Part shown: positions 1,688 to 63,630 of the stretch, one piece after another | Layout of the letters: each line of letters begins with the position of its first letter | Numbering within the stretch: position 1 is the stretch's first letter | NCBI GenBank assembly: GCA_903813345.2 | Contig: CAIIXF020000001.1 | Coordinates: 7,564,001 to 7,628,000 of the forward strand | Origin: Owenia fusiformis | Lineage: Eukaryota | DNA length: 64,000 bases | Reading direction: 5' to 3' | Notes under the pieces: generated by a model | Databases searched by the model: none | Told to the model about the DNA's origin: nothing | The model's input: the letters and a program-made list of their open reading frames with translations, nothing else | Made by a program: the position numbers and the translations under genes

Positions 1688-3559
1688 TTGGAAAATATCA
1701 AGTTGCGTCCCTGGGAGCCAATCCTCCTTGTCAAGGAGGATTGGCTCCCAGAATGCAACACCGATATTCTGCAAAACAATCACCTAGCGATAGCTTTGTT
1801 GGAGAGTATCGGGTCATTCTCCATGCAGTCGTACAAATTATACAGACACGAATAGCAAATGACGCATGCGTGGAGATTAAAGAATATCGAGTTGGAACCC
1901 TGGCTTCCAATCCTCCTTGCCTCCTTGATCAAAAAAATGAAAAGGTGTCACTACGGTAAATCATTGAAAAATATTGAAAAAATTCACAAAATTCAAGTTC
2001 TGGGGTACATGTCGCTATTTTCGAACGAACTAGCCCATACAATGACTATATTTCTGCGTTCCCCTATACATAACCTTCATATTGACACTATATTTAACAT
2101 AGGGTTTGCGTCTCGATTTTTAAATATCACTACGCCAACATAGGGACTCATTTTTAGGTAAAATCCCTGCTTCACCGATGAAAATTAACGAATAAAGTAG
2201 TTCCAGTTTACGGGACTATATTCTTGCGATTTTTTTCTTAAAATGGCACATTTAGAAAGTACTTGGCCTCAGCTTTACATACATACCTCAAATGGCCACA
2301 TTGCATACACTTAAACCTACTATACACACCATTGAAGTTGGCATGGCTTCGTTTTTAAAGTATTAAAAAACACTGTCCTACCCGGAAGTGCTATTTACAG
2401 GAGTGACACCTTAATACCCAAAACGGGAAAATTTGACCATGATATTTTTTGCTCATTTAGCATTTTTTCAAACAATTGAGTTATTTCATGCTCGAAACAG
2501 CTGCATTTCCAAACTTTTAACACGTTTTCTACAAAATCTAGCCATATTTGGGGAAATAGGTGAGGGCTGAGTCTCTAAAAACTGGCCAAAATGACCTAAA
2601 ATTGGGTCATCAACTTCAGAGATCTCATGCAAAAATTTTAGACGCAAAATCTCCGAGATTATTTCATTTTGTCAATCACTATAGCAATGCCTTTCAAGTA
2701 TTACACAGAATGAACTGAAATGTAAGTTGCCAAATGCAAATATTTTGAGTCAAATGTGGTCCCCATGTGCAAAATTTGCCCATTTACTCCTAGTTACGCC
2801 AGTTAGGCCGCAGTGTATTGTGACATCATACTCATACCATTGCTACAATGTAGCAATTTACAAATTAATCTTGATTACTCTTCCTGTGATACACCTGGCG
2901 TGTTTATTAAGCCTGTAAAAATGATAATTTGCAACATTGTAGCAATTTAAATGAGGTATGGAACCTTAAAATCATGCAATTTATGGAGAAATGACCAGCA
3001 ATTTTGACGGAATTCCAGTTGATTTGTTCCCATTTATGATCCCTTTGGGCCCCGTTTGGGCCCCCGTTTGGCCATTCTGATAGGCACAGGATGTTTAAAT
3101 GTGAATTAAAAGCATTTTGTGGCCTAGCCTGAATGTAAATATCGACTCTATTGTGAAATTCTACAAATTCTACAACATCCATGGTCTCTGCGCAAATGGC
3201 AGCCAATCTAAGGCGGGGATATTAAGGTGTCACTACGGTAAATCATTGAAAAATATTGAAAAAATTCACAAAATTCAAGTTCTGGGGTACATGTCGCTAT
3301 TTTCGAACGAACTAGCCCATACAATGACTATATTTCTGCGTTCCCCTATACATAACCTTCATATTGACACTATATTTAACATAGGGTTTGCGTCTCGATT
3401 TTTAAATATCACTACGCCAACATAGGGACTCATTTTTAGGTAAAATCCCTGCTTCACCGATGAAAATTAACGAATAAAGTAGTTCCAGTTTACGGGACTA
3501 TATTCTTGCGATTTTTTTCTTAAAATGGCACATTTAGAAAGTACTTGGCCTCAGCTTTA

Positions 3560-5289
3560 GGTATGAGTACCGTAATCCAACACCAAATTTGAAAATTCAT
3601 AACAATACTTTGCACATATGGCGTTCGTGACCAACTATAAAACGCTTACCCCCCATAGTGTTATATATCAAAATGTACCTGTTCATATAGGGGTTCGATT
3701 GATCTACATCATATTATAGGGAGTCAGGTTACTTTTTGAGATATCAGCGTCCATTTATTGTAACTCGCGTTTGCCACCACTTCCTCAATTCTGATATGAC
3801 GAGCAAACGCGTAGTAGACATGCTCACGTCGGAACTATTTTTGACATTCATCGCTATTTTCGTAATTCAAATGAAAGTTGAACTCCTCCTCTTCATTTTG
3901 ATACCAAATAGTGGCATACTAGGTACCCTAGAAGCCAACTATGATGTTATTTAGAACAATACCACAGGTTTTTAAATGGACTATATAGGGGTCATACCTT
4001 TTGGCGGATGGATATGGAACCTCATACCTTAATGTCTTATGACATCACACTGATTTTTGTCTCTGCAACTTTTTTTGGCGGAAAATATCATTTTTAGTTC
4101 AAAAATGCATAAAAACGTCGAAATTGGCTGAATATGTGAAAAATTTATCCATTTAGGCTAGAAAGGGTTAATTTGCCCTACCCCAAATACGTCTAAATAT
4201 GCTAGTCTAACTTTGCCACTGTGACGTCACAAATCTAACCTGACTATCTCCGAGTTTATTGAAGAAAATGATACGTCTGACAAACAGCTTTCATTCCCTA
4301 TATGGCACACCTTCTACTAAGAGTTGCATCATTGACTAAATCTAAGACAAAGGCCCTGTGTCCCGAGGATTTTGACTGAAATTTGGCCATTTTCGCCCAA
4401 ATCTAACTAAATTGCAGTTTCCCTCACACCTGTATTTTGAAATAAATATTGCTACAATGTAGCAATTTAAAAATCATACATGCTTACTGTTTCTGTCGAC
4501 CTGACACGTGTATCTAGCCTGTAAAAATGAAAAATTGCTACATTGTAGCAATTTTACTGAGATATGGGCCCTGAAAATCATGCAATTTTAGCAAAAAATG
4601 AAGAAATAACCTGCAATTTTGACGGAATTTCAGAGGGCTTTCTTTCATTCGTGACCCTCCACGGGCCTCTTATGACCATTCTTATACTCACAGAATGGTT
4701 GAAAGTGATTTCAAATCATTGTTTGCCCTAAGCAGAACGAAAAAAATCGATTCTATCCTCAAATTCTGCTGGAATATTGGTCTCTGGCCAACTAGCAGAC
4801 AATTTTAGGCCTCATATTAAGGTATGAGTACCGTAATCCAACACCAAATTCGAAAATTCATAACAATACTTTGCACATATGGCGTTCGTGACCAACTATA
4901 AAACGCTTACCCCCCATAGTGTTATATATCAAAATGTACCTGTTCATATAGGGGTTCGATTGATCTACATCATATTATAGGGAGTCAGGTTACTTTTTGA
5001 GATATCAGCGTCCATTTATTGTAACTCGCGTTTGCCACCACTTCCTCAATTCTGATATGACGAGCAAACGCGTAGTAGACATGCTCACGTCGGAACTATT
5101 GTTGACATACATCGCTATTTTCGTAATTCAAATGAAAGTTGAACTCCTCCTCTTCATTTTGATACCAAATAGTGGCATACTAGGTACCCTAGAAGCCAAC
5201 TATGATGTTATTTAGAACAATACCACAGGTTTTTAAATGGACTATATAGGGGTCATACCTTTTGGCGGATGGATATGGAACCTCATACC
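3560..5289. mobile_element. Non-autonomous composite DNA transposon with long terminal direct repeats (KolobokP-like), nested inner element
   Basis: 469-bp direct repeats at 3560-4028 and 4821-5289 (about 3 differences), each GGTATGAG...CTCATACC. TTAA-bounded internal region 4029-4820. TTTA TSD at 3556-3559 and 5290-5293; the empty site is visible in LTDR1 of the outer element. Confidence 0.88.
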
Positions 5290-5334
5290 TTTACATACAT
5301 ACCTCAAATGGCCACATTGCATACACTTAAACCT

Positions 5335-5691
5335 TAGACTATATCCTATTTAGTCTGAATTATATTCAGACTATAAGGCACCTATGTTAAAGTTTGGTAA
5401 TTCAAAATATTTATTTACATAGGAAGTGCTATTCAAAATGGCCGATTGGGTAAAATTAATTTGCACATTTTTACTTCAACTAGCTTTATTTCCACTTGAC
5501 AATATGCTGTGTTACTTTATATTGCATTTAATTGTACCTTACTATTTAATTGACATTTTGTAATGTTTATTTTTTTGAAGAAATGGTTCCTCTAATTGAT
5601 AATTTTGTGCAAAAAATTTCACTGCAATTTCCACAGGAAAGTAGTACATCATAACAGACTGACTTCTAGTCAGTCTGTTGGATACATACTA
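5335..5691. mobile_element. 357-bp non-autonomous DNA element with TAG...CTA ends and a 10-bp TSD (Academ- or MULE-like; class uncertain)
   Basis: TSD ACTTAAACCT at 5325-5334 and 5692-5701, with the empty site at about 2308-2317. Imperfect TIR TAGACTATATCC / GGATACATACTA and a subterminal 11-bp-stem hairpin at 5653-5679. Confidence 0.75.
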
Positions 5692-6355
5692 ACTTAAACC
5701 TACTATACACACCATTGAAGTTGGCATGGCTTCGTTTTTAAAGTATTAAAAAACACTGTCCTACCCGGAAGTGCTATTTACATGCGTGGAGATTAAAGAA
5801 TATCGAGTTGGAACCCTGGCTTCCAATCCTCCTTGCCTCCTTGATCAAAAAAATGAAAACATGAAAATTATTCAACTTCCGGTTTTTCAAAATGACTCGT
5901 AAAAATATAAATTACACAAATAATATTGAATTGAAACTCTATATATCTACTTACGTTTGATCTTCACAATTATTTCCTGTGGTTGAACCTTACGACGATG
6001 TTCCTGATCTTTCAAGCAAGAGATGAAGTCAAAAGAAACAAAAATGTAAAAATCAGTTTCTGAGGGCCGCCATATTTTTTGTACTGCAGCCACTAGCAGT
6101 CAAAATAGATCTTGTATGTTTTCTCCAATCAAGACTCTATTTACGATATTATAAACAAAACTTGATTAAATATATAACTTAATTATAAATGAATAGAGTG
6201 ATATAGTAAAGAAAGTAAATATTTGATCAAAATAAGTGCAGAGTTTAGTACCATTTTGTAAAATCTGCAGTTTATTTACACTGTCAACAAGTTTTGGAAT
6301 TTGGACCAAGAGTTTCCAGGTTATAAATGAATAAGTAGCATGCAAATCAATCAAC

Positions 6356-6719
6356 ATGCAAAGACATTATAAACACATCATTTCCAGGTGCTTTAGCCTG
6401 GTAGCCAAAGAGAAGCCAAAGAGGCAAGGTCAAATATTGAGGACTTTGAATGGAGAAGTTGACACTTCTTCAGAACATTTTCAAAACAATTTAGAACATT
6501 CCAAGAGCCTTGCTGAAAAGTACAAACAAGTGTTATCTGTGGCTGAGGCTGGTGGTGGTGAAAAGGGAAAACAGCTTCATGTCGTGCGTAACAAAAAAAT
6601 TCTGATACGAGATCGCTTGAAGCTTTTATTAGATGAAGATTCAGAGTTTCTCGAATTGTCGCCATTAGCGGGTATGGGAATGGAATATGGCGACATCCCA
6701 TGTGCAAGTAATGTAAATG
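6356..6719 (+). CDS. MCCC2-like: MCCC2-like exon 1 (basic, mitochondrial-presequence-like N-terminus to FLELSPLAG...NVNG)
   Basis: ORF-track translation with GGGEKG...RDRLKLLLD..SEFLELS; GTATGT donor at 6720. The start codon is inferred. Confidence 0.85.
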
Positions 6720-6974
6720 GTATGTAGCATTGCCACGGTTATACCAGGCTTTCACGATAACACTACCATGGTCATGGCAGTATCCTGTGAAACTTAAAAA
6801 CTTTAATAACATGGTGACGGTTGTGCCAGGCATAAGTCTTGCAATAGATAGCACTGTTAAAAAGGCATAAAAATTAGATTTAACCCATACTGTAATTTCC
6901 CTGTTCAACTCTGTATCTGTGTTACTTTTTCCAATTAAAGCAAATACATGTTCAATCTTCAAAATTATTTTCAG

Positions 6975-7153
6975 GTATTGGAAAAATCCATGGAAGATGG
7001 TGTATGGTACTGGGAAATGATGCAACCACCAAGGGAGGTACTATCTTCCCTATATCTATCAAGAAGAACCTACGTAGTCAGAAGATAGCAGAGGAGAACA
7101 TGTTACCTTGTGTGTATATAGTTGACAGTGGTGGAGCATTCTTGCCTCTTCAG
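6975..7153 (+). CDS. MCCC2-like: MCCC2-like exon 2 ([22 protein letters not shown]...[11 protein letters not shown])
   Basis: TTTCAG acceptor, GTAAAA donor, conserved carboxyltransferase motifs. Confidence 0.93.
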
Positions 7154-7366
7154 GTAAAAGCATCCTCTGGCCACAGTGCTCCAAGATCCAGAATGAGTTC
7201 TGTAACCCTATATTATACAGAGGATGGGTAAAAAGTTTGAACATCTCATTCATAAACAATCGTTGCTTTAGATTCAAATCATGCTTAAACAATACATTTG
7301 CAGTATAATGATCATTCGGCAACTGAGTATTTTATTATCAAACTATACATTATTTTTTATTTTCAG

Positions 7367-7447
7367 TCGGATATATTCCCTGACAGAGATCATGGGGGAC
7401 AGAATTTTAACAATGAAGCGGTGATGTCATCTAAAGGAATTCCTCAG
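7367..7447 (+). CDS. MCCC2-like: MCCC2-like exon 3 ([27 protein letters not shown])
   Basis: TTTCAG acceptor, GTATAA donor, FPDRDH motif. Confidence 0.92.
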
Positions 7448-8080
7448 GTATAAAAACAAAATGGCCATGTTTACAGTTGGATTGAAACACATTTGCTCCA
7501 AATTCCTTAGATATGGTCATACTTACTTTTGTTGCAATTGTTCTTGCAAAAGAAGTCATGAGAGGGATATTGGATATCCCTACAAGATCTCAGCCAGCTG
7601 ATTTTTGCAATGAGTACATGGACTTTCCTCTCACTTCAAGGATTGCTTCCAAAAGGTGTAACATGAGTGGGTGCATGGTCAAACAGCAGGTCTGCATTAA
7701 TGCTCATTGCTCATGGTGCCTACATGAGCTCATGAGTACCATAAAAAAGTTAGCCTCTAATTGATTTTTGTTCTAGCTACATATTCCCAAAATAAATCCC
7801 TGATATGTGACTGTTACTTTCAACACTCAAAACACTGTCCTAAAGTGATGCCAGAACTTGGGTCAACATTCAGCCATTCTTATATTTGTTGTAACACCAT
7901 ATAGTCTAATAGTTACCATAGCAAGAGTGAAAAGTGATTCAAATTACAGTTGAACTGTTGGAGTCTCTATGTTTTTTTATCAAAAGATGATATTGCCATT
8001 AATTCATATAGGTACATGCACAGGTCGTACATGAGGGACCCATTCCCAAGTGACATTACACATTATTATGTGTGTTTTAG

Positions 8081-8259
8081 GTAGCTATAGTATGTGGCAG
8101 TTGTACAGCAGGGGGCGCCTATGTTCCAACTATGGCTACAGAGGCTGTCATTGTACACAAGATAGGAACTATTTTCCTCGGTGGACCCCCACTTGTTTAT
8201 GCAGCTCTGGGAGAGGTGGTCTCGCAGGAAGATCTTGGGGGTGGAATGATGCATTCTAG
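8081..8259 (+). CDS. MCCC2-like: MCCC2-like exon 4 ([16 protein letters not shown]...IFLGGPPLV...[10 protein letters not shown])
   Basis: TTTTAG acceptor, GTACAC donor, hallmark motifs. Confidence 0.94.
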
Positions 8260-9039
8260 GTACACAATGAAACTTCTGTAAAAATCCTTGTTTTCACTAA
8301 AAAGTGCTCCATTTGGAAGATGTTCCATAATTGGAGGCTCAATTTAATATTCCATGTGTCAATTCAAAGATTCCAATTTCAAGATGTTTCGCTTAAAGTG
8401 CAAAAATAATGTGTAAGAGATATGGCCCTCAAATACCCCTTTTTGATAACTTAAGATCAGAATTATGAAGAGAATGGTTAATATTAGTTTGATTTTTCAA
8501 GCTATATATTTCAAGTTCAATATCGATTATTTAAGGAATAAAGAATTGTGTTTTATTCTCTATTGGAAATTTAAAAGCATGAGTGCATGTACTAATTCAT
8601 ACACATAATGCTCGAAGACGAAGCCTGAGTACATTATGAGGATGGATTAGTACATGCATGCATGCCTTTCAATCCAATGAAGAATGATACAGGGTTCATT
8701 ATGAAACCAAAATGCACTTAAAAATAATGTTTCTGCTCAGTTGACAATATACCTTGAATTAATGCACTGAAATACTATAAACTGATTGGCTGAGACACAC
8801 TTTGCATATTTGATTATCTAGTACAACAGGGAGCACCAGCCCTTCATTCTGTTGCTTCGTTTTTTAACATTTGCATCTAAAATCTTCAATTCAATAGAAT
8901 ATGCAAAGATTGTACGGAAATTCAGATGAAAAATCGTCATACTGTTTAAATGGATTCCTTCATTTTACACTCATTTTCTTTGCTGCCATTTTAAGGTTTA
9001 CACTCAAATATATAGAATTACTACTTGCTCTGTTTCCAG

Positions 9040-9229
9040 TGTGAGTGGTTGCACAGACTACTATGAAAAAACAGAAGAAGATGCATTTCAAACGGGACGT
9101 GATATTATTGCTTGTTTAAACATTGACGAACCTGAGGACCTCATTGACTTCGAAGACCCCTTGTACAACATAAATGACATCCCTGGTATCATTCCAGTGG
9201 ACAATCAGCACAACATGGACATATACAAA
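9040..9229 (+). CDS. MCCC2-like: MCCC2-like exon 5 (VSGCTDYY...MDIYK)
   Basis: TTCCAG acceptor, GTAATT donor, phase consistent with neighbours. Confidence 0.9.
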
Positions 9230-9608
9230 GTAATTTTTATTTTTATGATTTAATCTGATCATGGAATCTGACATGCACCATTAGAGACTACATATTAGAT
9301 GCATTGACTTATATCAGATCCACTTCATATCAAATAAGTAATATACCAATAAAATTAATATATAGTTTGATAGATTTATAGCAACCATTTTCTATTTTGC
9401 AAAAGTAAACACTTATTTATAGGAGTAGCTGGCTTGCTTTAGTTGGTTACGCAGTATTTTTGAACCCTCAAAGACATTGTTCCAAAGTTTAAGTATCCTT
9501 TAGATGTCATTGCCCCATCCCCTGAGTTAAGCATATATCAAGTTTGTGGGTCTGGAAAACAGTAAATGAACTCAGTGACTAATAAGTAAGTTCACCATTA
9601 CATTACAG

Positions 9609-9700
9609 GTATTATCTCGGTTGGTTGATGGCAGTAGATTCCATGAGTATAAGGCACTATATGGGCCAACGCTTGTCACCGGGTTTGCCTTCATACATGG
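9609..9700 (+). CDS. MCCC2-like: MCCC2-like exon 6 ([31 protein letters not shown])
   Basis: CAG acceptor, GTAAGT donor, VDGSRF.E.K.LYG.TLVTGFA motif. Confidence 0.94.
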
Positions 9701-9995
9701 GTAAGTGTTACTAAAACTGTATTTTACTATCATGATATCCCAATTACATGGCCACTGGTTGAAATTTGGAAAGTTGAACCAAAGTACCAAGAGATGCACA
9801 TCTCTGATTTCTAAAGATTTGTCAGTGTAAATGGTATAATATTACATTGCAGATTATCCAAGTACACACCCTTTGAACAAATTGTCATATCTTATATGGA
9901 TCCACATTTGTGTGAACACGAACATGATAAAACATGAATATGTACAATATGAATTATCGAGAGTATATAAAACCTGATCTTGCCTTTATTCCTAG

Positions 9996-10156
9996 GCACC
10001 TTACAGGTATTTTAGGCAACAACCAGGGAAGTATCTCTGAACAGGCAGCGTTAAAAGCCACAAACTTTATACAACTCTGTAGACAGAGGAGATGTCCAAT
10101 TATATTTCTACAGAATACAACTCCTGAACAACACATTGCTCAGACTACAGAGGCAG
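9996..10156 (+). CDS. MCCC2-like: MCCC2-like exon 7 ([11 protein letters not shown]...FIQLC...[10 protein letters not shown]...)
   Basis: CCTAG acceptor, GTATGT donor. Confidence 0.9.
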
Positions 10157-10550
10157 GTATGTGTGCTACTAAGGAATAAAATGTTTCAGAAATTGATGAG
10201 ATTTGAATTAGAATATGCACAACTGACACTGGCAGATCCAGAAGCTAAAAAAAGCCAAAATATTTTTGGGCCATCCTGGGGGGGGGGGCATGCTAAAGTA
10301 AGTTGATGTTACTTATGATAATGTTGTTTTTATTTTGAAGGTTTTAACCCCTTTACATTCCAAAAGTGTTCCTTGACATTTCGTTTTCGCCTTTGAAAAA
10401 TTTCACCTCATAAATTAAACACATTAACTTTACTGCCTAGATCCCCTTGTATAAAACAATCTCACACAACATCGTATAGATGTTATAATTGTTTTTTGGG
10501 AGAAAATCAATGAAGAATATTTCTGTTTGTAATGAATTGTGCTATTTCAG

Positions 10551-10672
10551 CAATTGAATATAGTAAAAGAGTGAAGGCCCAAGCTGCAATGATGTCTGCC
10601 GTAGCCTGTGCAGATGTCCCAAAAATAACTATAATCATTGGAAATAGTTATGGTGCTGAAAATTATGCAATG
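10551..10672 (+). CDS. MCCC2-like: MCCC2-like exon 8 (…[28 protein letters not shown])
   Basis: TTTCAG acceptor, GTAAAT donor, AVACA.VPKIT.IIG.SYGA.NY motif. Confidence 0.92.
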
Positions 10673-11115
10673 GTAAATATATTAAAGGGTGATATCTACA
10701 AGTGGACTATCATACACTAAAAGTCCCTAACCATGGGAATTAAGTACTGTATCTGGTATTATGTTCAGTAATATCCCTTTTTAAAAAATTTTAGATTGAG
10801 AAATGCCTATAATACTTTGGAAATATATTATGTCTGTTGTGAGTAGCTACTCCCATCATGAAATCAGGGGAATAAAAAGGGAATACCTCCATCTTTTTTA
10901 CATTATTTTTTGCATATATCCATCCATCTCTCTGGATGATGACTCGAATGCCAGTGGTATAATTTCATTCAATTATAGGCATGTCCCTTGTTAGACTATC
11001 GTCAAAAGAGTTACAAAATAGTTACCCAGACCTTTTGTGAATGAACTCTGCAATTAATACATTGCATAAGTACCTCATTAGCTAAAACTTTTCTCTTACT
11101 GTGTTTTGTATTCAG

Positions 11116-11211
11116 GCTGGCAGGTCAATGAGCCCAAGCTTTCTGTTTGTGTGGCCCAATGCTAGGACCTGTCTGATGCAAGAAGAGCTTCTTGGCCAAG
11201 AAACTGTCCAG
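11116..11211 (+). CDS. MCCC2-like: MCCC2-like exon 9 (AGRSMSPSFLFVWPNARTCLM...ETVQ)
   Basis: TTCAG acceptor, GTAACA donor, GR...P.FL..WPNAR motif. Confidence 0.92.
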
Positions 11212-11929
11212 GTAACATCCAGATTTAATCCTTTCTATTGTGTTATTTATTTCTTATAAGCTAAAATAAATACTTCACAATGTGGGCCAAAAATGTTTAT
11301 ATTTTTCACTGGGTTAAAACTTTCTAAACCATGTATTTTTAAAGAAAATTGCGGGAGCAAAAATGTCACAAATATATCTTATTGGGTATCTGTTTTAGAA
11401 AAGTTTGCAGACACTGGGGATGATGAGCGTTATGTAGAATGTTTTAAGACTTTAAATTATGTTTCATAAAAATAGGCTCCAAAGTAAATTTAAACATTTA
11501 TCTACTGTAAAAAGTCACCCCTGTACCTCTATTTTATAAAAATCTGTGATAAACATCATCATTACTAATTCAAGAGAAAGTCCATGCTAATTGGTAGAAA
11601 AAACTTATTATGGTATACATTTTTTAATAACAATGTTGCCATACAAAATTGAAAATAAAATCCAGAGATATCAGACAATTCCAGAGTCAAACTGCATATA
11701 TCTTCATGAAAATGTTAGATTTCAAAGCAACAATTTAAATGGACTCCAAACCTACCCTCACAGCCATCCATTTCATACCATTCCTTTTTAATTTGAAACA
11801 TTTAAAACTATACATATCAGAATTTTACCTTATCAGAAGTCCAAAGTTTCATAAAAAATATTGGTTACATGTCATAATAAATACATAATTATACACACAT
11901 CAAAATAACATGTTACACAATTGATAAGA

Positions 11930-12078
11930 ATGAAATGTCCAGGGGGTGAAATGTCCAAGGGATGAAAAGTCCCAGGATGAAATTGAAATATCAAGGGGGG
12001 AAATGTCTAAGGGGTAAACATCTAGGGGATGTAATGTCTAAGGGATGAGCAGTCTAGGGGTGAAATGTCTTGATACCC
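11930..12078. repeat. Degenerate ~15-16-bp minisatellite (GAAATGTCYAGGGGT-like)
   Basis: About 9 imperfect copies visible. Confidence 0.65.
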
Positions 12079-13086
12079 TCTGCTAGTAATGATATAACTA
12101 CATAACTACCATACAAATCAAGACAAATGATTAGATTTAAATGGAGGAAGTCAGTCCAATTTAAATCAATTTGGTGATAGGTCCTTTTAGTAATATGTAT
12201 ATTACTTTTTGAAAAAATATGCATGTATTGGCATGATCATTATTCATACATACTGCATGTGGTTCATAAAATACCCCATGGAAGTGAAAATAGAAGAAGA
12301 TAAAGCGACCAAAAGGATACTTCATTCAATGTATACTGTAAACATTCACTTTTCTGTTTTCTCAGACAATTGTATGCATATGATATGGACCATATAAATA
12401 TTTTAACCTCCCAAAGATGTCACATGTATTTGATCCCTGAAAATCTTTGCTTTTCATTTACACATACAAACATAAATAATGACATATTTGAGTTACCCTG
12501 TATATTGAGCTGGATGTCAAATTGGAGTTGTTGCTCCCATAAGTAGAATGAGCTGTAGCTAATTGAAAAGATTATATTGAACATCTATTTTCACATTCCT
12601 GGCACAAACAAGTCCAAAATGCTTTCTCGGCAAGTGTCACATGATTTCTTGATCGCGCCTTCCTGATGTCCTAATAAACACTTGATTTATATTTTAAATT
12701 ATATTTTCTGCTCCAACCTAGGTGTTTTTTCCTACCTCCCACACAATGTATGTCTGATTTCTTTCAAATTAATTAAATATTTGAATACAACAGTTCCATT
12801 TTTAATTTTCAGTAGTTGCTTCTCGTAATGATTTTATTGGATTACTAAATGTTTTACATAAAAATGTTTATTCTGCTTCATTCAAATATTACTATTTTTG
12901 GCGAAAGGAGTCTGCAAAGGTGCCACAAAAGCAGTGAATGAAGAAATATAATCGGATTAGCTAATTAAGCAAATCCACCTAATTAAGCTAATTAGGCAAC
13001 TTTAATTAGCCTATTATAGCTGATTCCTTAAAGTAAGTCATATAAATGGTAAATTCTTAACATACTTACATAAATTGCTGGTCAGT

Positions 13087-16000
13087 AAGTAAATCCAGTA
13101 AGTAAATCCAGGCCCAAATTATCAAGGAATTAATGTATTATATTGCAACATTAATGGTAAAATTTCTGAAGGTGAAAAAAGTAACCGATTTGTCGAACTT
13201 GGTATAACAGCTAAACTTCAAAATTGCCATATTTTATCAGTTTGTGAAGCAGGGAAAAACCTGGATCTGAATAAACTAGTTATTGAGGGTTTTCATAAAC
13301 CATACCAACCACATAACCCCTTGGGTAGAGGTATACTGCTATATGTTGATGAAAAGCTAGCGTTTAAACCTAGAGAAGATCTTAGCACAATTAATGAGAT
13401 TGGTTGGGTAGAAATAGTAGTTGATCATAAAAAAATCCTAATTGGCACATGTTATAGGTCGCCATCAATGACATTGATTGGGGATATTGAACAATTTAAT
13501 ACTCTTCTAGAGCAAAGCTTAGATACTGCCATTAGGGAGAGGAAGTACGACATGATTCTATTGAATGGGGATTTTAATGCCAAGAGCAAGTTCTTCTATG
13601 ATCATGATATTGATAATTTTGCAGGGACTAAACTGTATGAGACAATGACAACCCTCGGTTTTGAACAATTTATTCATGAGCCAACTAGGATTACAGAAAA
13701 TAGCAAAACTTGCATAGATCTTGTTTTTTCAAATTCTCCAGGCTTTATGCTTGGAAATGAGATTTTAGCACCAATAGGTGGCAGTGACCATAGCACTGTG
13801 GTGTCACATATACAGCTAGCTGCAAATAAACAACAGTCAAAACATATAACTAAGACATGGCAATATAAAGATTGCAACCAGCCTGCTCTGAACAATGAAA
13901 TTAATACTATAAATTGGAATGATATTATTAATATTGGGTCAATTGATGACTCTTGTCTCAATTTTTCATCTAAATTGTCTTCTGTTTTTGACCAATACAT
14001 ACCACACAAATTGAAAGTGAGGAATTCAAATGACATGCCTTGGTTTAATGATGAAATCAAAATGGCAATAAATAGGCGTGACAAATATTATAAGAAATTC
14101 AAAAGAAATAATACTTTTGACTCAAAATTGAAATATAAAAATAAAGTTGAAATCTTAGGAAGACTCATTGATAAGGCCAAGGAGAATTATGAAAATGAAA
14201 TTTGTGAAAATCTTCAGACATATTCTAGCGGAGATCACTTTTACTGGAATGCAATTAAGAAACTACTTGGAAATAAGTTCTCCTCTGGAATTCCAACTTT
14301 GAGTAATCCATCTTTGACCAAGGTTTGTAGCTCTGATGAAGATAAAAGAAATGAATTCTTAAATTTGTTTGTGGGAAAATTTCATTATGATACCTCAAAT
14401 ACAACAATTGATTTACCACTTTTTCCAACTAGAACAAATAAGACACTTACTTGCAATTTGACCACGCCAGCAGAAATACGGAGCCTTATAGTTGACCTTG
14501 ACACTTCAAAAAGTGAGGGACTAGATGGAATCACAAATAAAATGCTTGTAATGAGTGCTTTCTCTATTGATAAACCACTAGCTCTAATTTTCAACAGAAT
14601 TCTTTCTGAAAATATTTTTCCTAGATCTTGGAAGGATGGGATAATTATTCCCATTTATAAAAATAAGGGTGATAAGTCAGACAGCTCTAATTATAGGCCT
14701 GTAACACTTCTTTCTACTATATCTAAATTGTTTGAAAAGGTTTTACAAAAACAGGTAATGAAATTTCTGTTAGACAATAATTTACTATATGAAAATCAGT
14801 CAGGCTTTTTACCTGGTCATAGTACTGACAGTCAACTTCTCAGCATAACAAACTTCATTTTTAGTAATTTCGAAAAACAAACTGATGTGAGAGGAATTTT
14901 TTTGGACCTGGAATCTGCATTTGATAAAGTCAAGCACAATTTACTCATTCACAAGTTAAAATCATATGGTTTTGATGAAAATATCTTGACTCTAATTAAA
15001 TCATACCTAAGTAATAGAAGAGTATGTACGCGCTTAAACGGGACTTTATCTGAATTTTCAGAAGAAAACTACATAAACAGCGGTGTTCCACAGGGTTCCA
15101 TTTTAGGTCCCATCCTGTTTTTGCTTTTCATTAATGACCTACCAGAGGTCATTCAGTCAAAATGTTTCATTTATGCCGACGACACATCCATATATGTGCC
15201 CGTTCAAAAGTCCGAGGATATTGCAGTATCAAACTTATTACTACAGCGTGACTTGGATAATGTTTACGACTGGTCAAGAGTATGGGGCTTAAATTTCAAG
15301 CCCTCTAAAACCAAAGAAATTATTTTCTCCAAATCTGGTCGAGCCCAAAGAAATTACCCTATTTTGACCTTAAGCGACAGAGAAATAGAGAGAGTAAAAC
15401 ACCATAAACACCTTGGCGTTATCTTAGATAACCACCTTGATTTCAAAGAACATATAGACCAGCTTAAATTAAAAATAAACAAAATGCTAAATCCTTTAAT
15501 CGCTTTAAAAAATAGAATCTCATCCAAACATCTTGAAAGAATGTACCTATCTTTTATTTTGCCTAAAATAGAATTCGGCTCTATCTTTTACAACTGCGCA
15601 CCAAACTATGCCTTAATCACACTCGACAGGCTGCATTATAGAGCAGCCTTAGTAGTGACTGGGGCCATAAAGGGTTCCTCCGAGATCAAAGTTCTATCCG
15701 CTTTAAATTGGAAATCTTTAAGTGAAAGAAGACAAGAAAAAATGGCAACTCTTATGTACAAAGTTACCAAAAACAAAGTCCCTCGCTATGTTCATGACAT
15801 ATACAGAAATCTTCAAAATCCTGGGGTAGAGCGTGCTCTTCGTGCCCGACACGAATACAACATTCCTGCTAGATCATCCACAAAATTCACAAATTCACCA
15901 GCCATTGCACCAATAAGAATATGGAAAACTATCTCTTTTGACGTCAAGAACAGTCCCTCAATATCAGCCTTTAAGTCACGTTACAATAAATGGAAATATA

Positions 16001-16658
16001 ACCCCAACCCCCGTTCAGTGCTGACCACAAAACTAAACCTCAAAAGATCTATCGAAATTAAATTGAATCGTATCCGAGTTGACCTGGCATCCAGAGCAGA
16101 TTTTTACAGACACAATTTTAAAGAGTTTACAGATCCCAGTTGCCCCTGTGGCTTTCAACAGCAAACTAAGTCTCATTTACTCCTTGATTGCCCTCTATCG
16201 AATGGAGCCAGAGAAGTTTTTACCCAAAACCTGAAGGAGCTGCCTAGTTTTAATTATAACAACTTTGCCACTTTAACAAAGTCTAGTAAAATCAAGATTA
16301 TGCTTTTTGGAGATTGTAAACTTTCAGATGAATGTAACAAAGAAATTACCAATTTATCAGCAAATCTTATAGACAAAATCATCTGATACTTTATAAAAAT
16401 TCATGATCGTAAGGACAAAGTTCAACCCATCTTTCATCAATCATTATCATTCATTCCTTACATTTCCCATAAGGACTATGTAACTCTTATAAAAGACATG
16501 ACACATGTTTTGAGAACCATTATTAATATATGTTAATTTGCAAATTTTATAAAGGGAGGCCAATAATGTAATGTTTTACCTAGGCCTTCCTAGTATGTTA
16601 ACAAGTGTATAATCTTAATGCAAATAAATAAAACTTAACCTTAAAAAAAAAAAAAAAA
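13087..16658 (+). mobile_element. 5'-truncated non-LTR retrotransposon (APE-RT; CR1/L2-group-like) with intact ORF2
   Basis: 15-bp TSD AAATTGCTGGTCAGT (13072-13086, 16659-16673); AATAAA followed by a poly(A) tail at 16643-16661. Confidence 0.93.
13102..16386 (+). CDS. LINE ORF2: AP endonuclease + reverse transcriptase + C-terminal Cys/His motif (open frame of 1094 aa, no native start)
   Basis: The frame is open from 13102 (VNPGP...YCNING). Motifs GDFN, SDH, GVPQGSILGP, YADD, HLGV and CPCG...HLLLDC; no stops or frameshifts. Confidence 0.92.
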   Translation, partial: VNPGPNYQGINVLYCNINGKISEGEKSNRFVELGITAKLQNCHILSVCEAGKNLDLNKLVIEGFHKPYQPHNPLGRGILLYVDEKLAFKPREDLSTINEIGWVEIVVDHKKILIGTCYRSPSMTLIGDIEQFNTLLEQSLDTAIRERKYDMILLNGDFNAKSKFFYDHDIDNFAGTKLYETMTTLGFEQFIHEPTRITENSKTCIDLVFSNSPGFMLGNEILAPIGGSDHSTVVSHIQLAANKQQSKHITKTWQYKDCNQPALNNEINTINWNDIINIGSIDDSCLNFSSKLSSVFDQYIPHKLKVRNSNDMPWFNDEIKMAINRRDKYYKKFKRNNTFDSKLKYKNKVEILGRLIDKAKENYENEICENLQTYSSGDHFYWNAIKKLLGNKFSSGIPTLSNPSLTKVCSSDEDKRNEFLNLFVGKFHYDTSNTTIDLPLFPTRTNKTLTCNLTTPAEIRSLIVDLDTSKSEGLDGITNKMLVMSAFSIDKPLALIFNRILSENIFPRSWKDGIIIPIYKNKGDKSDSSNYRPVTLLSTISKLFEKVLQKQVMKFLLDNNLLYENQSGFLPGHSTDSQLLSITNFIFSNFEKQTDVRGIFLDLESAFDKVKHNLLIHKLKSYGFDENILTLIKSYLSNRRVCTRLNGTLSEFSEENYINSGVPQGSILGPILFLLFINDLPEVIQSKCFIYADDTSIYVPVQKSEDIAVSNLLLQRDLDNVYDWSRVWGLNFKPSKTKEIIFSKSGRAQRNYPILTLSDREIERVKHHKHLGVILDNHLDFKEHIDQLKLKINKMLNPLIALKNRISSKHLERMYLSFILPKIEFGSIFYNCAPNYALITLDRLHYRAALVVTGAIKGSSEIKVLSALNWKSLSERRQEKMATLMYKVTKNKVPRYVHDIYRNLQNPGVERALRARHEYNIPARSSTKFTNSPAIAPIRIWKTISFDVKNSPSISAFKSRYNKWKYNPNPRSVLTTKLNLKRSIEIKLNRIRVDLASRADFYRHNFKEFTDPSCPCGFQQQTKSHLLLDCPLSNGAREVFTQNLKELPSFNYNNFATLTKSSKIKIMLFGDCKLSDECNKEITNLSANLIDKII

Positions 16659-17042: not shown

Positions 17043-20000
17043 AATTATTTCATAATTTTCATTTATTCTGCTTCATTCAAATATTACTATTTTTGGCGAA
17101 AGGAGTCTGCAAAGGTGCCGCAAAAGCAGTGAATGAAGAAATATAATCGGATTAGCTAATTAAGCAAATCCACCTAATTAAGCTAATTAGGCAACTTTAA
17201 TTAGCCTATAATAGCTACTTTTAGGTGCGGGTTCACGAAAAAGGCCATATCAAATTTTATCAAATATAATTCAATTACTTACAACTTTTACATGCAGCTG
17301 CATAAAATTTGATGAACCCCACCAAAAAAGATAATGCATATAAAAAAATTCAAACACCTTCCCCAAGGTTGGTGTCGAACATATGCTGAGGCTCATATTA
17401 ATATTTTCATGTCATAACCTTCTGACTCAACAAATTTACGTACAAAAATTAAATTCAGTGTTCTTATATTAGATTTTCATTTTTCCAATTTGCAAATTGT
17501 TTTGTGTGCTTATTAAATCAGTAAGCCATATCTCATCGGTAACAAGTCAAAAAATGACTTGTTACGCTTCTTTGGCGTAATAGGGGTTGCACCAATGGCA
17601 TGAATGTGGCACATTCACTGGGAACCTTCCTAGCAGACTATTAAGTGTAAATTCTCTAGTCAGATCGGCTGATGGAACATGTTTTTTTGGCATTGCCAGT
17701 TGGCCGAGCAGTCTACAGCGCCAGAATCTCAGCTTGACAAAGACGTCATAACCATCAGGTCGTGAGTTGAAGACGCGTGAGCTTCTTGTATTTATTCAAT
17801 TCTGCATAATAAAATATATCGCATAATTAATAACACGTAGATTGTTACTTTGCTGTGAATAACTTACATTTTCGCTAAAACTTACATGTCCAAAGTGTGA
17901 TGTGCTGTGTATGATATGCCTACAAATCAGCAAGTAAAAACGTTAAGACAGGTAAACATTTATAGATAAACAGTCTCTTGGAATATTTTGCCAACCTTAA
18001 TTTGACCCCTCTAACTAAACCTAACAAGTACAACATGTTATCAATTCCTGACCCTTTGTAATTGAGGAGATAATGGGAAAATCTGGATATAAAGTATCAA
18101 GTAACATCTCATATCATATCTTATAGACATATTGCTCCCCCCCCCCCTCCGTCCTTCCCCCCTCCGTCCTATTTTAATTATTTTCGATTATTTTTTATAC
18201 AACCTATGGAAACATATTTTGTAAAGTCATTAAGGTCATTAATTTTATGATGATAATGTCACTTACAAATATTTATTGCAGGTTGTGTAGACTGTTGATG
18301 CTTGATTTAAAGCAAAAACATTGACTTTTTCACATTGGTGGCGTTGCGCCTTTTTTAATAGATCTTATACCTAAGAAGAGAATCGGCTAAAAAAAATTAG
18401 TAGAATACGCGACATATTTTACCATACCGTGCGCCTTGTCAGTTTCAATGATCTTATAGTATTCTTCAAGCACTGTATGTTCATACACCAATTGCACTGC
18501 TTCATACATGAAGCATACACCACTTGTTTGCTTAGAGATCCGCTGATCTCCCATACATATTTAAATTTTTGTTTCAGATCTGCTGATCTTATCCCTTTAT
18601 TATATAGTGTTTGCTTAGAGATCCGCTGATCTCCCATACATATTTAAATTTTTGTTTCAGATCTGCTAATCTTATCCCTATACAGTATATATACATTATA
18701 TCTACAACAAAAATTATTTTGATATTAATAATATATTGATAGTCTAACGCATTACTTTTGCTGATTTGAATTGCTTTCTTCTTGTACTATAAATTCATAT
18801 GCTAGATGATTTTCTATACAGTTTTGAAATCTCGCTCATTCTCATTTTCAGCCAAATCTCCAATAATGCAGCGCTAAATTTCTTTAAAGCCTTGGTTTAT
18901 TCCTTCAACAACAATTTTTTTTATGATTTATCACAATATGGAGAGTGACAGGAGTATCCCTTAGTATGCTATTCAAGTTTCAAAATAGATTCAACAAACT
19001 CGTTTTGACAAATCTTGAAATTAAGTGACTTTTGAAAGTTTATAACATTGAAGCCTATGGCAGCCTGGCCCAAACAAAACAAATTTGACATTTATCATAT
19101 AAGATTGATGAAGCTGTAAATAACTTCCCAAATACATTGCTTTATTTATCATGGTTTAAAACATATTTTCAGAGTCCTTGGTCTCAAAAATAATATTATC
19201 TATGAACATATAATATTTATTACTATTTGGCTTGTCAAATCTGTTCATTTTGCAACATGTCTTCATATATTACATGCTTAAATTGTTTTAATTTATGAAT
19301 ATGATTTGCTTCATGTTTATTATTTATAAAGTACATTGTTTTCATGAGATCTGCTAATCTCGTATATGTAATATAATTTGTGAACATGATTTTCTCAATT
19401 TTTCATTTCGCAAATTTCAGTTGATTTTAGATTACTTATTCACAGGCTGGTATCGAAATATTTGTCCGCTGTGACGGAGCATGCTATTTTTCACGAAAAC
19501 ACTAAGAATACTTCACGATTTATTTTTTAACTCATATGTTTCGTTATACCATACACAATTACTTACTCCATGCAATGGATATGTCATTTGTGGGTAACTT
19601 TCACTTCTGTTTGAAGTCCAATTACGCTGGGAAGAAAAGCTATTGAAAATGGCGCCGGAGTATCATACTTCAAAATGTACCATTTCTTGTTTAACTTTCT
19701 AATGGCACGATATAGTGACACGATAATATTTACACATGGTTTCGTCATAACTATGAAGGTATAAATGAGAAGTTGATGTAATTATTTCATAATTTTCATT
19801 TATTCTGCTTCATTCAAATATTACTATTTTTGGCGAAAGGAGTCTGCAAAGGTGCCGCAAAAGCAGTGAATGAAGAAATATAATCGGATTAGCTAATTAA
19901 GCAAATCCACCTAATTAAGCTAATTAGGCAACTTTAATTAGCCTATAATAGCTACTTTTAGGTGCGGGTTCACGAAAAAGGCCATATCAAATTTTATCAA

Positions 20001-22518
20001 ATATAATTCAATTACTTACAACTTTTACATGCAGCTGCATAAAATTTGATGAACCCCACCAAAAAAGATAATGCATATAAAAAAATTCAAACACCTTCCC
20101 CAAGGTTGGTGTCGAACATATGCTGAGGCTCATATTAATATTTTCATGTCATAACCTTCTGACTCAACAAATTTACGTACAAAAATTAAATTCAGTGTTC
20201 TTATATTAGATTTTCATTTTTCCAATTTGCAAATTGTTTTGTGTGCTTATTAAATCAGTAAGCCATATCTCATCGGTAACAAGTCAAAAAATGACTTGTT
20301 ACGCTTCTTTGGCGTAATAGGGGTTGCACCAATGGCATGAATGTGGCACATTCACTGGGAACCTTCCTAGCAGACTATTAAGTGTAAATTCTCTAGTCAG
20401 ATCGGCTGATGGAACATGTTTTTTTGGCATTGCCAGTTGGCCGAGCAGTCTACAGCGCCAGAATCTCAGCTTGACAAAGACGTCATAACCATCAGGTCGT
20501 GAGTTGAAGACGCGTGAGCTTCTTGTATTTATTCAATTCTGCATAATAAAATATATCGCATAATTAATAACACGTAGATTGTTACTTTGCTGTGAATAAC
20601 TTACATTTTCGCTAAAACTTACATGTCCAAAGTGTGATGTGCTGTGTATGATATGCCTACAAATCAGCAAGTAAAAACGTTAAGACAGGTAAACATTTAT
20701 AGATAAACAGTCTCTTGGAATATTTTGCCAACCTTAATTTGACCCCTCTAACTAAACCTAACAAGTACAACATGTTATCAATTCCTGACCCTTTGTAATT
20801 GAGGAGATAATGGGAAAATCTGGATATAAAGTATCAAGTAACATCTCATATCATATCTTATAGACATATTGCTCCCCCCCCCCCCTCCGTCCTTCCCCCC
20901 TCCGTCCTATTTTAATTATTTTCGATTATTTTTTATACAACCTATGGAAACATATTTTGTAAAGTCATTAAGGTCATTAATTTTATGATGATAATGTCAC
21001 TTACAAATATTTATTGCAGGTTGTGTAGACTGTTGATGCTTGATTTAAAGCAAAAACATTGACTTTTTCACATTGGTGGCGTTGCGCCTTTTTTAATAGA
21101 TCTTATACCTAAGAAGAGAATCGGCTAAAAAAAATTAGTAGAATACGCGACATATTTTACCATACCGTGCGCCTTGTCAGTTTCAATGATCTTATAGTAT
21201 TCTTCAAGCACTGTATGTTCATACACCAATTGCACTGCTTCATACATGAAGCATACACCACTTGTTTGCTTAGAGATCCGCTGATCTCCCATACATATTT
21301 AAATTTTTGTTTCAGATCTGCTGATCTTATCCCTTTATTATATAGTGTTTGCTTAGAGATCCGCTGATCTCCCATACATATTTAAATTTTTGTTTCAGAT
21401 CTGCTAATCTTATCCCTATACAGTATATATACATTATATCTACAACAAAAATTATTTTGATATTAATAATATATTGATAGTCTAACGCATTACTTTTGCT
21501 GATTTGAATTGCTTTCTTCTTGTACTATAAATTCATATGCTAGATGATTTTCTATACAGTTTTGAAATCTCGCTCATTCTCATTTTCAGCCAAATCTCCA
21601 ATAATGCAGCGCTAAATTTCTTTAAAGCCTTGGTTTATTCCTTCAACAACAATTTTTTTTATGATTTATCACAATATGGAGAGTGACAGGAGTATCCCTT
21701 AGTATGCTATTCAAGTTTCAAAATAGATTCAACAAACTCGTTTTGACAAATCTTGAAATTAAGTGACTTTTGAAAGTTTATAACATTGAAGCCTATGGCA
21801 GCCTGGCCCAAACAAAACAAATTTGACATTTATCATATAAGATTGATGAAGCTGTAAATAACTTCCCAAATACATTGCTTTATTTATCATGGTTTAAAAC
21901 ATATTTTCAGAGTCCTTGGTCTCAAAAATAATATTATCTATGAACATATAATATTTATTACTATTTGGCTTGTCAAATCTGTTCATTTTGCAACATGTCT
22001 TCATATATTACATGCTTAAATTGTTTTAATTTATGAATATGATTTGCTTCATGTTTATTATTTATAAAGTACATTGTTTTCATGAGATCTGCTAATCTCG
22101 TATATGTAATATAATTTGTGAACATGATTTTCTCAATTTTTCATTTCGCAAATTTCAGTTGATTTTAGATTACTTATTCACAGGCTGGTATCGAAATATT
22201 TGTCCGCTGTGACGGAGCATGCTATTTTTCACGAAAACACTAAGAATACTTCACGATTTATTTTTTAACTCATATGTTTCGTTATACCATACACAATTAC
22301 TTACTCCATGCAATGGATATGTCATTTGTGGGTAACTTTCACTTCTGTTTGAAGTCCAATTACGCTGGGAAGAAAAGCTATTGAAAATGGCGCCGGAGTA
22401 TCATACTTCAAAATGTACCATTTCTTGTTTAACTTTCTAATGGCACGATATAGTGACACGATAATATTTACACATGGTTTCGTCATAACTATGAAGGTAT
22501 AAATGAGAAGTTGATGTA
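17043..22518. repeat. Near-identical 2.74-kb tandem duplication (17043-19779 / 19780-22518)
   Basis: The copies match line by line. The only difference I noticed is one extra C in a poly-C run. Identical ORF-track pairs (18419/21157, 18429/21167) confirm it. Confidence 0.95.
17695..17780 (+). other. Possible decayed tRNA-derived (SINE-head-like) sequence; duplicate near 20432-20517
   Basis: A-box-like TGGCCGAGCAGTCTACAGCGC and a degenerate B-box GAGTTGAAGA. Not a foldable tRNA. Confidence 0.25.
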
Positions 22519-23008
22519 TTTGGTCTTTTTAATTCTTTTATAAAAAATAATGTTTAATTTTTTTGTCCGCTCTGGCGGAGCAGTTGCAAATGTTAACTGT
22601 GAAAATGCTCCGTCACAGCGGACAAAAAATATTAATATTGTTTTTTATAAAAGAATTAAAAAGACCCAATGCATTAATATCTCATTAATACATTCAGAGT
22701 TATGCTTAAAACATATGTTAATATTGTCGTGTCACTATATCATGCCATTAAAAAGTTAAAAAAGAAATGGTACATTTTAGAGTTTGATACTCTGGCGCCG
22801 TTTTCAATAGATTTACTCCTAGCGTTATTGGACTTCAAAGAGAAATGAAGGTTACACGCAAATGATATATCCATTGCATGGAGTAAGTAATTATCTTTGA
22901 TATAACGAAACATATGAGTTAAAAAATAAATCGTGGAGCATTCTTAGTGTTTTTATGAAAAATAGCATGCTCCGTCACAGCGGACAAATTTTTCGATACC
23001 AGCCTGTG
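22179..23008. mobile_element. Foldback-type MITE with CAC...GTG ends and a 5-bp TSD; left arm also at 19441-19779
   Basis: CACAGGCTGGTATCGAAA / TTTCGATACCAGCCTGTG, long imperfect arms (>300 bp), TSD TTATT. Confidence 0.85.
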
Positions 23009-24372: not shown

Positions 24373-25269
24373 TTTATTTATTTATTTATTTATTTATTTA
24401 TTACAGTGTCACCCGTAATTATACGGCCAGCCTCCAAAGGCTTATGAGACACAATTACAATCATATTATAAGCAGATAAGTCAGAATTAACACTTACTTT
24501 AATCTATCTTTAGCCTCCAAAGACAAAAGCAAAAAATTTGAAACATATTTACAGAGTGATTTAGAATTCAATAAGTTCATTGTTTTCTTTTCATTATCAC
24601 AAGACTCAAATAGATCATATATACCTTTTACTTTACAAAACATTTCCTCTCTTAATTTATGATTAACTTTACACTTGAATAAAAAATGAAACTCATCACC
24701 TATTTCATTCTTACATTGCCTACAATATCTCTCTTGACTTGGTATATTCTGCCACCTACCCGTTTCAATCTCCAAAGGTAAAGTGCCAGATCGAAATTTA
24801 GCTAAAACAGATCTTTGTTTTCTACTCAAAAAATTACAAAATAAATATTCAGACCTTTGAAAAGATAATTTAAAGCTCTTATAAAAAGTCAATTTTCTTT
24901 TTTCCCTAATTGTCTCCAACCATTGAGTTTCATGTAATTTCATTAATTTTCCTTTCATTTGATTCACAAATTTTTTAAAATCTTTACATTTTTTCATATC
25001 ATCATACATATTCAGCATGTCAACACTTTTACATATGCTCTGGATTTCTTCGTTCCAGGTAAAATCACATTTCAATTTGGCTAAGCTTAAATCCCATCTA
25101 AATGCTTTCTTTGCCATATTGGCCTCTTCACAATTAACAACTAATCTATACAATAATCGAATACCTTCTATATAATGTCTTATATAATTTGGGGTCCATC
25201 CACACTCGCCTTCTAAAAAGCTGATAGGGCATTTTTTACTATTATAAGCTTCAAGGACAGGAGAAGATA
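24373..25269 (-). mobile_element. 5'-truncated LINE (3' end of ORF2, 3'UTR and (TAAA)n tail)
   Basis: Minus-strand ORF ending at 24494 with LAKFRSGTLPLEIETGRW...C..C...DEFHFLFKC; (TTTA)n at about 24371-24402. Confidence 0.88.
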
Positions 25270-52028: not shown

Positions 52029-52129
52029 TACGATTTGAGTTTTCACTAATTAGCATAGGCCAAGGGTAAAGTAATAGTCAACTTACGGGGTGCAGAGGTC
52101 ATGGCACCCCCTCTAGTAATGGATATAAG

Positions 52130-57356: not shown

Positions 57357-57471
57357 AAAGCAATGAGCGTTTGAAAATATAGTTACTTAATATTGCGTTA
57401 CAATTAGGTGCTAGGCCAATCTTGGTCTGCGGCGTGCGTCTACGCGGTAGCTAGGCGTCGTCGTCAGTTAA

Positions 57472-63400: not shown

Positions 63401-63420
63401 TTGTTAAAAACATGTTTAAA

Positions 63421-63630
63421 AGATTCAAATAAGCTTCATTTACTGTGAGTTCTGGATTCCAAATAAGCTTCATTTACTGTGAATTCTGGATTCCAAATAA
63501 GCTTCATTTACTGTGAATTCTGGATTCCAAAAAAGCTTCATTTACTGTGAATTCTGGATTCCAAATAAGCTTCATTTACTGTGAATGCTGGATTCTAAAT
63601 AAGTTTCATTTACTGTGAATTCTGGATCCC
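63421..63630. repeat. 34-bp minisatellite, ~6 copies
   Basis: Unit AAATAAGCTTCATTTACTGTGAATTCTGGATTCC. Confidence 0.9.

Follow-up and report, generated by a model that had tools for sequence, protein, structure and literature searches.

Two nested elements with long direct terminal repeats

The window analysed here, 64,000 bp of an Owenia fusiformis contig (CAIIXF020000001.1, assembly GCA_903813345.2, positions 7,564,001 to 7,628,000), contains at 1944-5782 two non-coding elements, one inside the other, whose anatomy resembles that of KolobokP, a published lineage of Kolobok DNA transposons (Kojima & Bao 2022, Mob DNA 13:24; PMC9587614). The first-pass annotation of the window had given both elements one architecture: a unit of ~468 bp, TTAA, a core of ~800 bp, TTAA, and the same unit again in direct orientation. 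A repeat finder, blastn and a coordinate check bear this out. We use the KolobokP terms and call the units long terminal direct repeats (LTDRs) and the cores INTs. All LTDRs and INTs described below for the window lie on the forward strand.

The outer element has the layout LTDR-INT-LTDR and consists of two direct copies, U1 and U2, around an INT termed core1, as established by reading the sequence at 1700-6100, by the repeat finder, by blastn of the parts against the window and by the coordinate check. U1 (1944-2410) is 467 bp long, starts with GG, ends with CC and carries imperfect 18-bp terminal inverted repeats (TIRs). Its ends, GGTGTCACTACGGTAAAT and ATTTACAGGAGTGACACC, match as inverted repeats at 16 of 18 positions (90% over 20 nt according to the repeat finder). 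Core1 (2411-3225) comprises 815 bp of non-coding DNA, with TTAA at its start and end. U2 is split into three segments, each free of mismatches to U1: 3226-3559 corresponds to U1 positions 1-334 and ends with the sequence TTTA; 5290-5334 corresponds to positions 331-375 and begins with a duplicate of that TTTA; 5692-5782 corresponds to positions 366-456 and is truncated, without the last 11 bp of the repeat. U1 and U2 are identical over all 456 positions that U2 has kept, and the intact outer element would measure 1,749 bp. The direct layout noted earlier for the outer element therefore stands; what the annotation had omitted are the missing 11 bp of U2, a 357-bp miniature inverted-repeat transposable element (MITE) inserted in it and a 79-bp duplication of the flank.

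The first gap of U2 is filled by the inner element (3560-5289; 1,730 bp). Its left LTDR, V1 (3560-4028), and right LTDR, V2 (4821-5289), are each 469 bp long and 99.36% identical, 466 of 469 positions being the same and the three mismatches falling at positions 31, 281 and 289. The repeat begins with GGTATGAG and ends with CTCATACC; these eight terminal bases pair perfectly, and the TIRs, as read from the sequence, continue imperfectly up to ~19 nt. Between the LTDRs lies core2 (4029-4820), 792 bp of non-coding DNA with TTAA at both ends. TTTA flanks the inner element on both sides (3556-3559 and 5290-5293), and the coordinate check located the uninterrupted insertion site, GGCCTCAGCTTTACATAC, in U1, where the empty TTTA occupies 2274-2277. 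Because of the TTTA flanks and the intact site in U1, we conclude, in agreement with the first-pass annotation, that the 1,730-bp LTDR-INT-LTDR unit inserted as one piece and generated a 4-bp target site duplication (TSD). It is the whole composite that moves, its limits set by the outermost TIRs of the LTDR pair.

Identity between the LTDRs of an element was considered as an insertion clock and rejected, as the older outer pair shows fewer differences (0) than the younger inner pair (3; a simple clock gives P about 0.05). The LTDRs were therefore either non-identical at insertion or homogenised later, and at these counts the two cannot be told apart.

Neither element appears to encode a protein. 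The longest stop-to-stop frame in 1944-5782 has 104 aa, and 16 frames have at least 50 aa. Pfam returned no match at E < 0.05 for any of the six frames scanned (one chance-level match had E = 0.078), and Rfam returned none in the whole window. The 104-aa frame lies on the minus strand of core1, the place of the nuclease gene in autonomous elements, and is not open in core2.

Three families share LTDR length, TTAA junctions and a conserved INT

The first-pass annotation had called the two cores clearly homologous and the two kinds of terminal repeat equal in length and faintly similar. The homology of core1 and core2 covers their 3' ~380 bp, which blastn aligns at 71% identity (E = 9e-49). Their 5' halves resemble each other weakly (z = 4.5 against shuffles) and have a TCTCCGAG-TTATT block in common. 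The LTDRs, 467 and 469 bp long, are 45.6% identical in a MAFFT alignment; they show a faint but significant similarity when compared in the direct orientation (z = 6.6) and none when one is reverse-complemented (z = 0.9).

Both INTs contain a perfect 19-bp palindrome, ATTGCTACAATGTAGCAAT, which we used as a pattern to scan metagenome contigs. Among the 12 loci found, one, L003, is a true relative; the other 11 share at most 44 nt around the palindrome and were taken as chance. The same scan gave four loci in prokaryote genomes, each a single palindromic site read on both strands and likewise taken as chance, and none in viral contigs. L003 is 1,306 bp long and comprises, in this order, the 3' part of an INT, TTAA, a 468-bp LTDR with GG..TC termini, TTAA and the 5' part of an INT. 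The ends of the contig repeat each other (period 1257 bp; 2 mismatches in 49), which makes L003 a tandem (LTDR-INT)n. A TGACGTCA palindrome opens its INT, in which a second TGACGTCAC block has its match in core2 at 4222-4265.

For the window, two non-autonomous sister families had been proposed that keep a minimal core conserved; the comparison supports this proposal, and L003 adds a third family. Across the families of U, V and L003, the LTDRs are only 46-53% identical, yet they measure 467-469 bp in all of them and have the TIR core GGTnTnAnTACnGTAA in common. Each of the six LTDR/INT junctions seen has TTAA, and conservation is higher in the INTs than in the LTDRs.

The palindrome occurs twice per INT in all three families, with the copies ~85-89 bp apart. 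The repeat finder, the alignment and the coordinate check place the copies of core1 at 2839-2857 and 2928-2946, the latter being imperfect. Those of core2 (4448-4466 and 4534-4552) lie within an inverted repeat with 40-nt arms, and those of L003 are located at 168-186 and 254-272 of the contig. The first copy is invariant in the three families, in which the surrounding INT is 53-67% identical. The palindrome region folds into a long hairpin, with z values of -4.2 and -7.7. An array of GCAATTT half-sites was dropped as a conserved feature: it has 4-5 copies in ~200 bp of core1 and of core2 and 1 copy in L003.

LTDR-INT junctions are present in many copies

We surveyed 19 runs, of which 13 of one organism and 3 of marine metagenomes hold part of the stretch; the other 3, raw-read runs of the same organism, were not indexed. 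The sequence at 4029-13000 was then compared with two raw-read whole-genome shotgun runs (X17 and X18; 151-nt reads) and two contig sets, one of them X1. The unique flank has a mean depth of 0.60x in X17 and 0.74x in X18 over 15 bins. In X17, the depth is 427-603x over core2 and ~730x over V2, and the excess over the flank is several-hundred- to ~1000-fold. In the window itself, blastn of all seven parts (E <= 1e-3) found no further copy outside 1944-5788.

The joint between the right end of V and the start of core2 is covered by 202 reads in X17 and 193 in X18, against an expectation below one for a single copy. In each run, another ~200 reads go on from the end of V, via TT, into a variant INT start with the consensus AATGTTTCATGACATCACAAT (agreement 0.5). 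Hundreds of V right ends hence run into an INT start, with solo, monomeric and multimeric forms inseparable by 151-nt reads, and two other studies also have contigs with LTDR-to-INT junctions. Upstream of 4430, where the homology between core1 and core2 starts, many reads diverge, which argues that the 3' block of the INT is the part conserved across subfamilies.

Four X1 contigs carry U with an empty TTTA site, three carry U without the 357-bp MITE (joint 5324->5692), and seven carry U with an intact right TIR and other sequence beyond it.

The first-pass annotation had further read the nesting as one family having targeted the other. Such a preference is not supported: each family has about a thousand copy-equivalents, so that a single nested insertion does not exceed chance, and we estimate that a few chance nestings per genome are to be expected at that copy number.

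The stretch occurs in marine plankton metagenome runs, and reverse transcriptases of long interspersed nuclear elements (LINEs) are encoded in the window; the host is a marine animal with LINEs.

The outer element is damaged at its right end

U2 ends at U1 position 456. The last 11 bp, GGAGTGACACC, which hold the right TIR, are gone, and no short (4-bp) TSD was found at the boundaries of the outer element in the window. The element is bordered by a duplication of 79 bp, whose left copy (1865-1943) and right copy (5781-5859) are 100% identical; the truncated LTDR end and the duplication have only the dinucleotide CA in common. The first 55 bp of the duplicated sequence are the tail of W, a high-copy MITE unrelated to the LTDR elements, and the last 24 bp are other flanking DNA. 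A full 188-bp copy of W, with the TIR CAAGGAGGATTGG.. / CAAGGAGGATTGGCTCCCAG.., occupies 1732-1919. The limits of the W match are marked by loose ends of reads at 5781 and 5835, where ~600-680 reads per run enter or leave. Because its last 24 bp fall outside W, the 79-bp duplication is a local one and not a pair of W copies. The tail of a second W copy ends at 1730 (the W region spans 1694-1919), and the two copies abut as a perfect 20-nt palindrome.

A secondary scar is the best reading of the right end. The outer copy would have been damaged after its insertion, losing 11 bp including the right TIR and gaining a templated copy of 77-79 bp of its left flank. This could have happened by a break at the transposon end, followed by the 11-bp loss and joining of the templated flank copy via the CA microhomology. 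Aberrant one-ended integration might instead have produced the duplication, and the two options are indistinguishable.

The second gap of U2 holds the 357-bp MITE (5335-5691), which is unrelated to the LTDR elements. It has the ends TAGACTATATCC and GGATACATACTA and is flanked by a 10-bp TSD, ACTTAAACCT, the length of which suggests a Mutator-like rather than a hAT-like family. Its TIRs are imperfect and of the form TAG..CTA.

The anatomy of both elements points to KolobokP

Taken together, these features make it likely that both elements are non-autonomous, non-coding Kolobok DNA transposons of the KolobokP type, recognised here from structure. KolobokP elements have the structure LTDR-INT-LTDR, in which the LTDRs are constrained to ~450 or ~660 bp and have perfect or imperfect TIRs of 11-18 bp of their own (PMC9587614). 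Direct terminal repeats enclose an INT in both elements of the window, and the LTDRs of U (467 bp), V (469 bp) and L003 (468 bp) fall into the ~450-bp class, which includes members of 473 and 480 bp (PMC9587614). Each LTDR has its own TIRs, matching at 16 of 18 positions in U and perfect for 8 bases, then imperfect, in V. The termini of KolobokP read 5'-RR..YY-3', a signature of Kolobok as opposed to piggyBac (PMC9587614); U and V both have GG..CC, and L003 has GG..TC.

The TSD of the inner element, TTTA, departs from the TTAA-specific 4-bp TSD general for Kolobok. It does not exclude KolobokP, because TSDs in this lineage are 3-5 bp long and show no strong target preference (PMC9587614); the TTTA duplication lies within that range. 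The outer element has no such TSD, its damaged copy being uninformative in this respect. The match to the KolobokP layout claimed by the first-pass annotation is hence upheld by every structural feature that could be tested, with the outer right end as the exception.

The likeness is closest to non-autonomous KolobokP families. Those of the Pacific oyster are 1,738-3,261 bp long, and KolobokP-4N1_CorFlu has a monomer of 2,637 bp with 473-bp LTDRs (PMC9587614). KolobokP-1_MeMe has an INT that carries the same four bases, TATA, at its start and end; solo LTDRs are frequent alongside monomers, as are (LTDR-INT)n multimers; and the lineage is abundant in marine invertebrates, especially bivalves (PMC9587614). 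The elements described here share with these families the layout, LTDR size, TIRs, RR..YY termini, a short TSD, a non-coding INT with ends made of the same four bases, high copy number and a marine invertebrate host, and L003 is a tandem unit. They differ in length, 1,730 and 1,749 bp being at or just below the smallest size quoted (1,738 bp). Autonomous KolobokP elements are 4.0-4.7 kb long and encode a Kolobok transposase of the DDD/E type as well as a His-Cys box nuclease (PMC9587614). With these, our elements have in common the terminal architecture and presumably recognition by the transposase; they differ in having no frame longer than 104 aa and no Pfam match. In a full-text search, KolobokP came up in only 2 papers. 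The literature from 2020 on, searched for 'long terminal direct repeats' or 'Kolobok', yielded no further description of such elements among the matches listed.

Several observations weigh against this assignment or against the nesting. Neither a Kolobok DDD/E transposase nor a His-Me finger nuclease turned up at the locus in the six frames compared with Pfam. The outer copy, having neither a TSD nor its right terminus, does not demonstrate its own transposition. The nesting at this locus rests on the assembly: the read-mapped stretch started at 4029 and leaves out U1, core1, V1 and the junctions 1943/1944 and 3559/3560, and within it (4029-13000; two raw-read runs, two contig sets) no contig was shown to bridge the junction 5780/5781. 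Finally, 10,679 of the 11,835 reads of X17 fit only in part, and 8,200 of the 11,835 are only 90-95% alike. Since most reads are partial and 90-95% alike, the depth reflects a large heterogeneous family, of which the copies in the window are diverged members, and not exact copies of them.

Alternative explanations

The alternative that fares best, itself improbable, is that each element consists of two MITE copies that captured the DNA between them and were moved by another TTAA-associated superfamily, such as piggyBac, Sola or PIF, the likeness to KolobokP being convergence. TTAA is the target of piggyBac. That no transposase is seen at the locus and that TTAA stands at all LTDR/INT junctions would agree with this explanation. 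However, the GG..CC termini follow the RR..YY pattern, which is a signature of Kolobok rather than of piggyBac (PMC9587614), and a length of 467-469 bp is that of the constrained ~450-bp LTDR class. Because the architecture has been kept in three families with diverged LTDRs, we regard it as the trait of a lineage and not as an opportunistic composite.

Two further explanations have very little to recommend them. In the first, the INT would be the mobile part, a TTAA-inserting MITE that landed between pre-existing MITEs or duplicated them, and the LTDRs would be flanking target DNA. In its favour, each INT has TTAA on either side, and INTs are better conserved than LTDRs. Against it, reading the sequence reveals no terminal inverted repeats on the INTs, with none in core2 and L003 and only TACCC/GGGATA in core1; the boundaries of the inner element and the TTTA duplication sit at outer LTDR ends and not at INT ends; and the LTDRs of three families are homologous and equal in length, unlike random target DNA.

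The second, held to be just as improbable, takes the structure for an artefact of assembly or for an immobile local tandem duplication. A high-copy family invites mis-assembly, the LTDR pairs are 99.4-100% identical, and the odd 79-bp duplication starts in another high-copy MITE, W. Against these stand the exact insertion boundaries, the TSD and the empty site, the ~200 LTDR-to-INT reads in each of two independent raw-read runs, the junctions in contigs of two other studies, and the same layout in an unrelated metagenome contig, L003.

That the elements are non-autonomous long terminal repeat (LTR) retrotransposons, either terminal-repeat retrotransposons in miniature (TRIMs) or large retrotransposon derivatives (LARDs), is barely credible: like TRIMs they are small and non-coding, with long direct terminal repeats, a short interior and tandem arrays sharing a repeat (PMC9587614), but their repeats have GG..CC termini with 16/18 TIRs instead of TG..CA, the inner TSD is 4 bp and not 5, TTAAT.. 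follows the left repeat where a primer-binding site would begin with TGG, and no conserved polypurine tract precedes the right repeat (core1, AAGGCGGGGATATTAA; core2, TTTAGGCCTCATATTAA).

Other repeats in the window

The window also contains other repeats. A LINE-type frame at 13102-16386 on the forward strand is intact (1,094 aa) and has endonuclease and reverse-transcriptase domains. A second one, at 52070-54984 on the same strand, is split by an apparent frameshift into parts of 314 aa and 658 aa that overlap at 53008-53014. Directly downstream of the first LINE lies a tandem duplication (17043-22521) with a 2.74-kb unit and 99.93% identity; its first ~155 bp also match 12867-13021 at 98.7%. 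An 86-bp satellite forms two blocks, 25098-26359 and 27498-28313, separated by ~1.1 kb, and its spacer is a nested inverted repeat with arms at 26202-26579 and 27270-27646 that are 82-99% complementary. Another inverted repeat, at 57457-58243, has 344-nt arms that are 95% complementary and a 99-nt loop. Direct repeats comprise a cluster of 5-7 diverged units of ~90-108 bp (55774-57246), a 34-bp tandem repeat of ~8 units (63392-63663) and a tandem 16-bp repeat (11930-11983). In the right flank of the nested elements, the stretches 6729-7028, 8529-8828 and 11829-12128 have a 40- to 90-fold excess of read depth and belong to other repeat families.

Discussion

The architecture, the constrained LTDR length, non-autonomous forms and multimers of KolobokP were already described in 2022, and a nested pair of transposable elements is expected at about a thousand copy-equivalents. 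For the elements of this window, the anatomy suggests the following scheme. Each LTDR of 467 or 469 bp would itself be a miniature transposon with GG..CC termini and short TIRs, and a KolobokP transposase encoded elsewhere in the genome would act in trans by recognising the shared TIR core GGTnTnAnTACnGTAA. Pairing of the two outermost TIRs, the left one of the left LTDR and the right one of the right LTDR, would mobilise the whole 1.73-kb unit, and the inner element would have entered the right LTDR of the outer one at TTTA in this way, making the 4-bp duplication. The two families and L003 would derive from one ancestor, having kept the LTDR length, the TTAA junctions and the ~800-bp INT while the LTDRs diverged.

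The scheme has a parallel in bacterial composite transposons and the pseudo-compound transposons of the IS26 type, where, as here, two self-sufficient copies with TIRs bracket cargo and can move as a pair or singly. Our elements differ from the IS26 type in that they are eukaryotic and their units encode nothing, are always direct and are constrained in length. Because TTAA stands on both sides of every internal LTDR, an LTDR within a tandem or circular unit has the appearance of a MITE that went into one TTAA of the INT. This fits the idea of Kojima & Bao that an LTDR-INT circle or unequal exchange is the source of monomers and multimers (PMC9587614).

A role for the INT palindrome may likewise be considered. 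The 19-bp palindrome may bind a protein, perhaps the nuclease or the transposase, which is speculation. More specifically, ATTGCTACAATGTAGCAAT might be a cis site for a dimeric trans-acting protein of the autonomous element, with the KolobokP His-Cys box homing endonuclease as prime candidate, a proposal prompted by the sequence that we consider doubtful in this precise form. A relative of that endonuclease, I-PpoI, cuts a semi-palindromic site (PMC9587614). The target of the nuclease has been sought in the LTDR or at abutted TIRs and not in the INT, and the main text of that paper makes no mention of an INT palindrome or a conserved INT block (PMC9587614).

For KolobokP biology, the locus would matter in three respects. 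The left LTDR of the outer element keeps the empty site of the inner insertion and so offers a clean worked example of an LTDR-INT-LTDR unit moving whole. The damaged right end with its templated 79-bp flank copy may be the footprint of an excision that failed. Finally, the LTDR length, the TTAA junctions and a homologous ~800-bp INT with its twin palindrome have been kept in three families, which provides a candidate cis site for the role of the KolobokP nuclease. If this were true, the ~800-bp INT would be kept, and the elements would not have decayed to solo-LTDR MITEs, because the INT is the target of a nuclease that drives break-induced unequal exchange and multimerisation.

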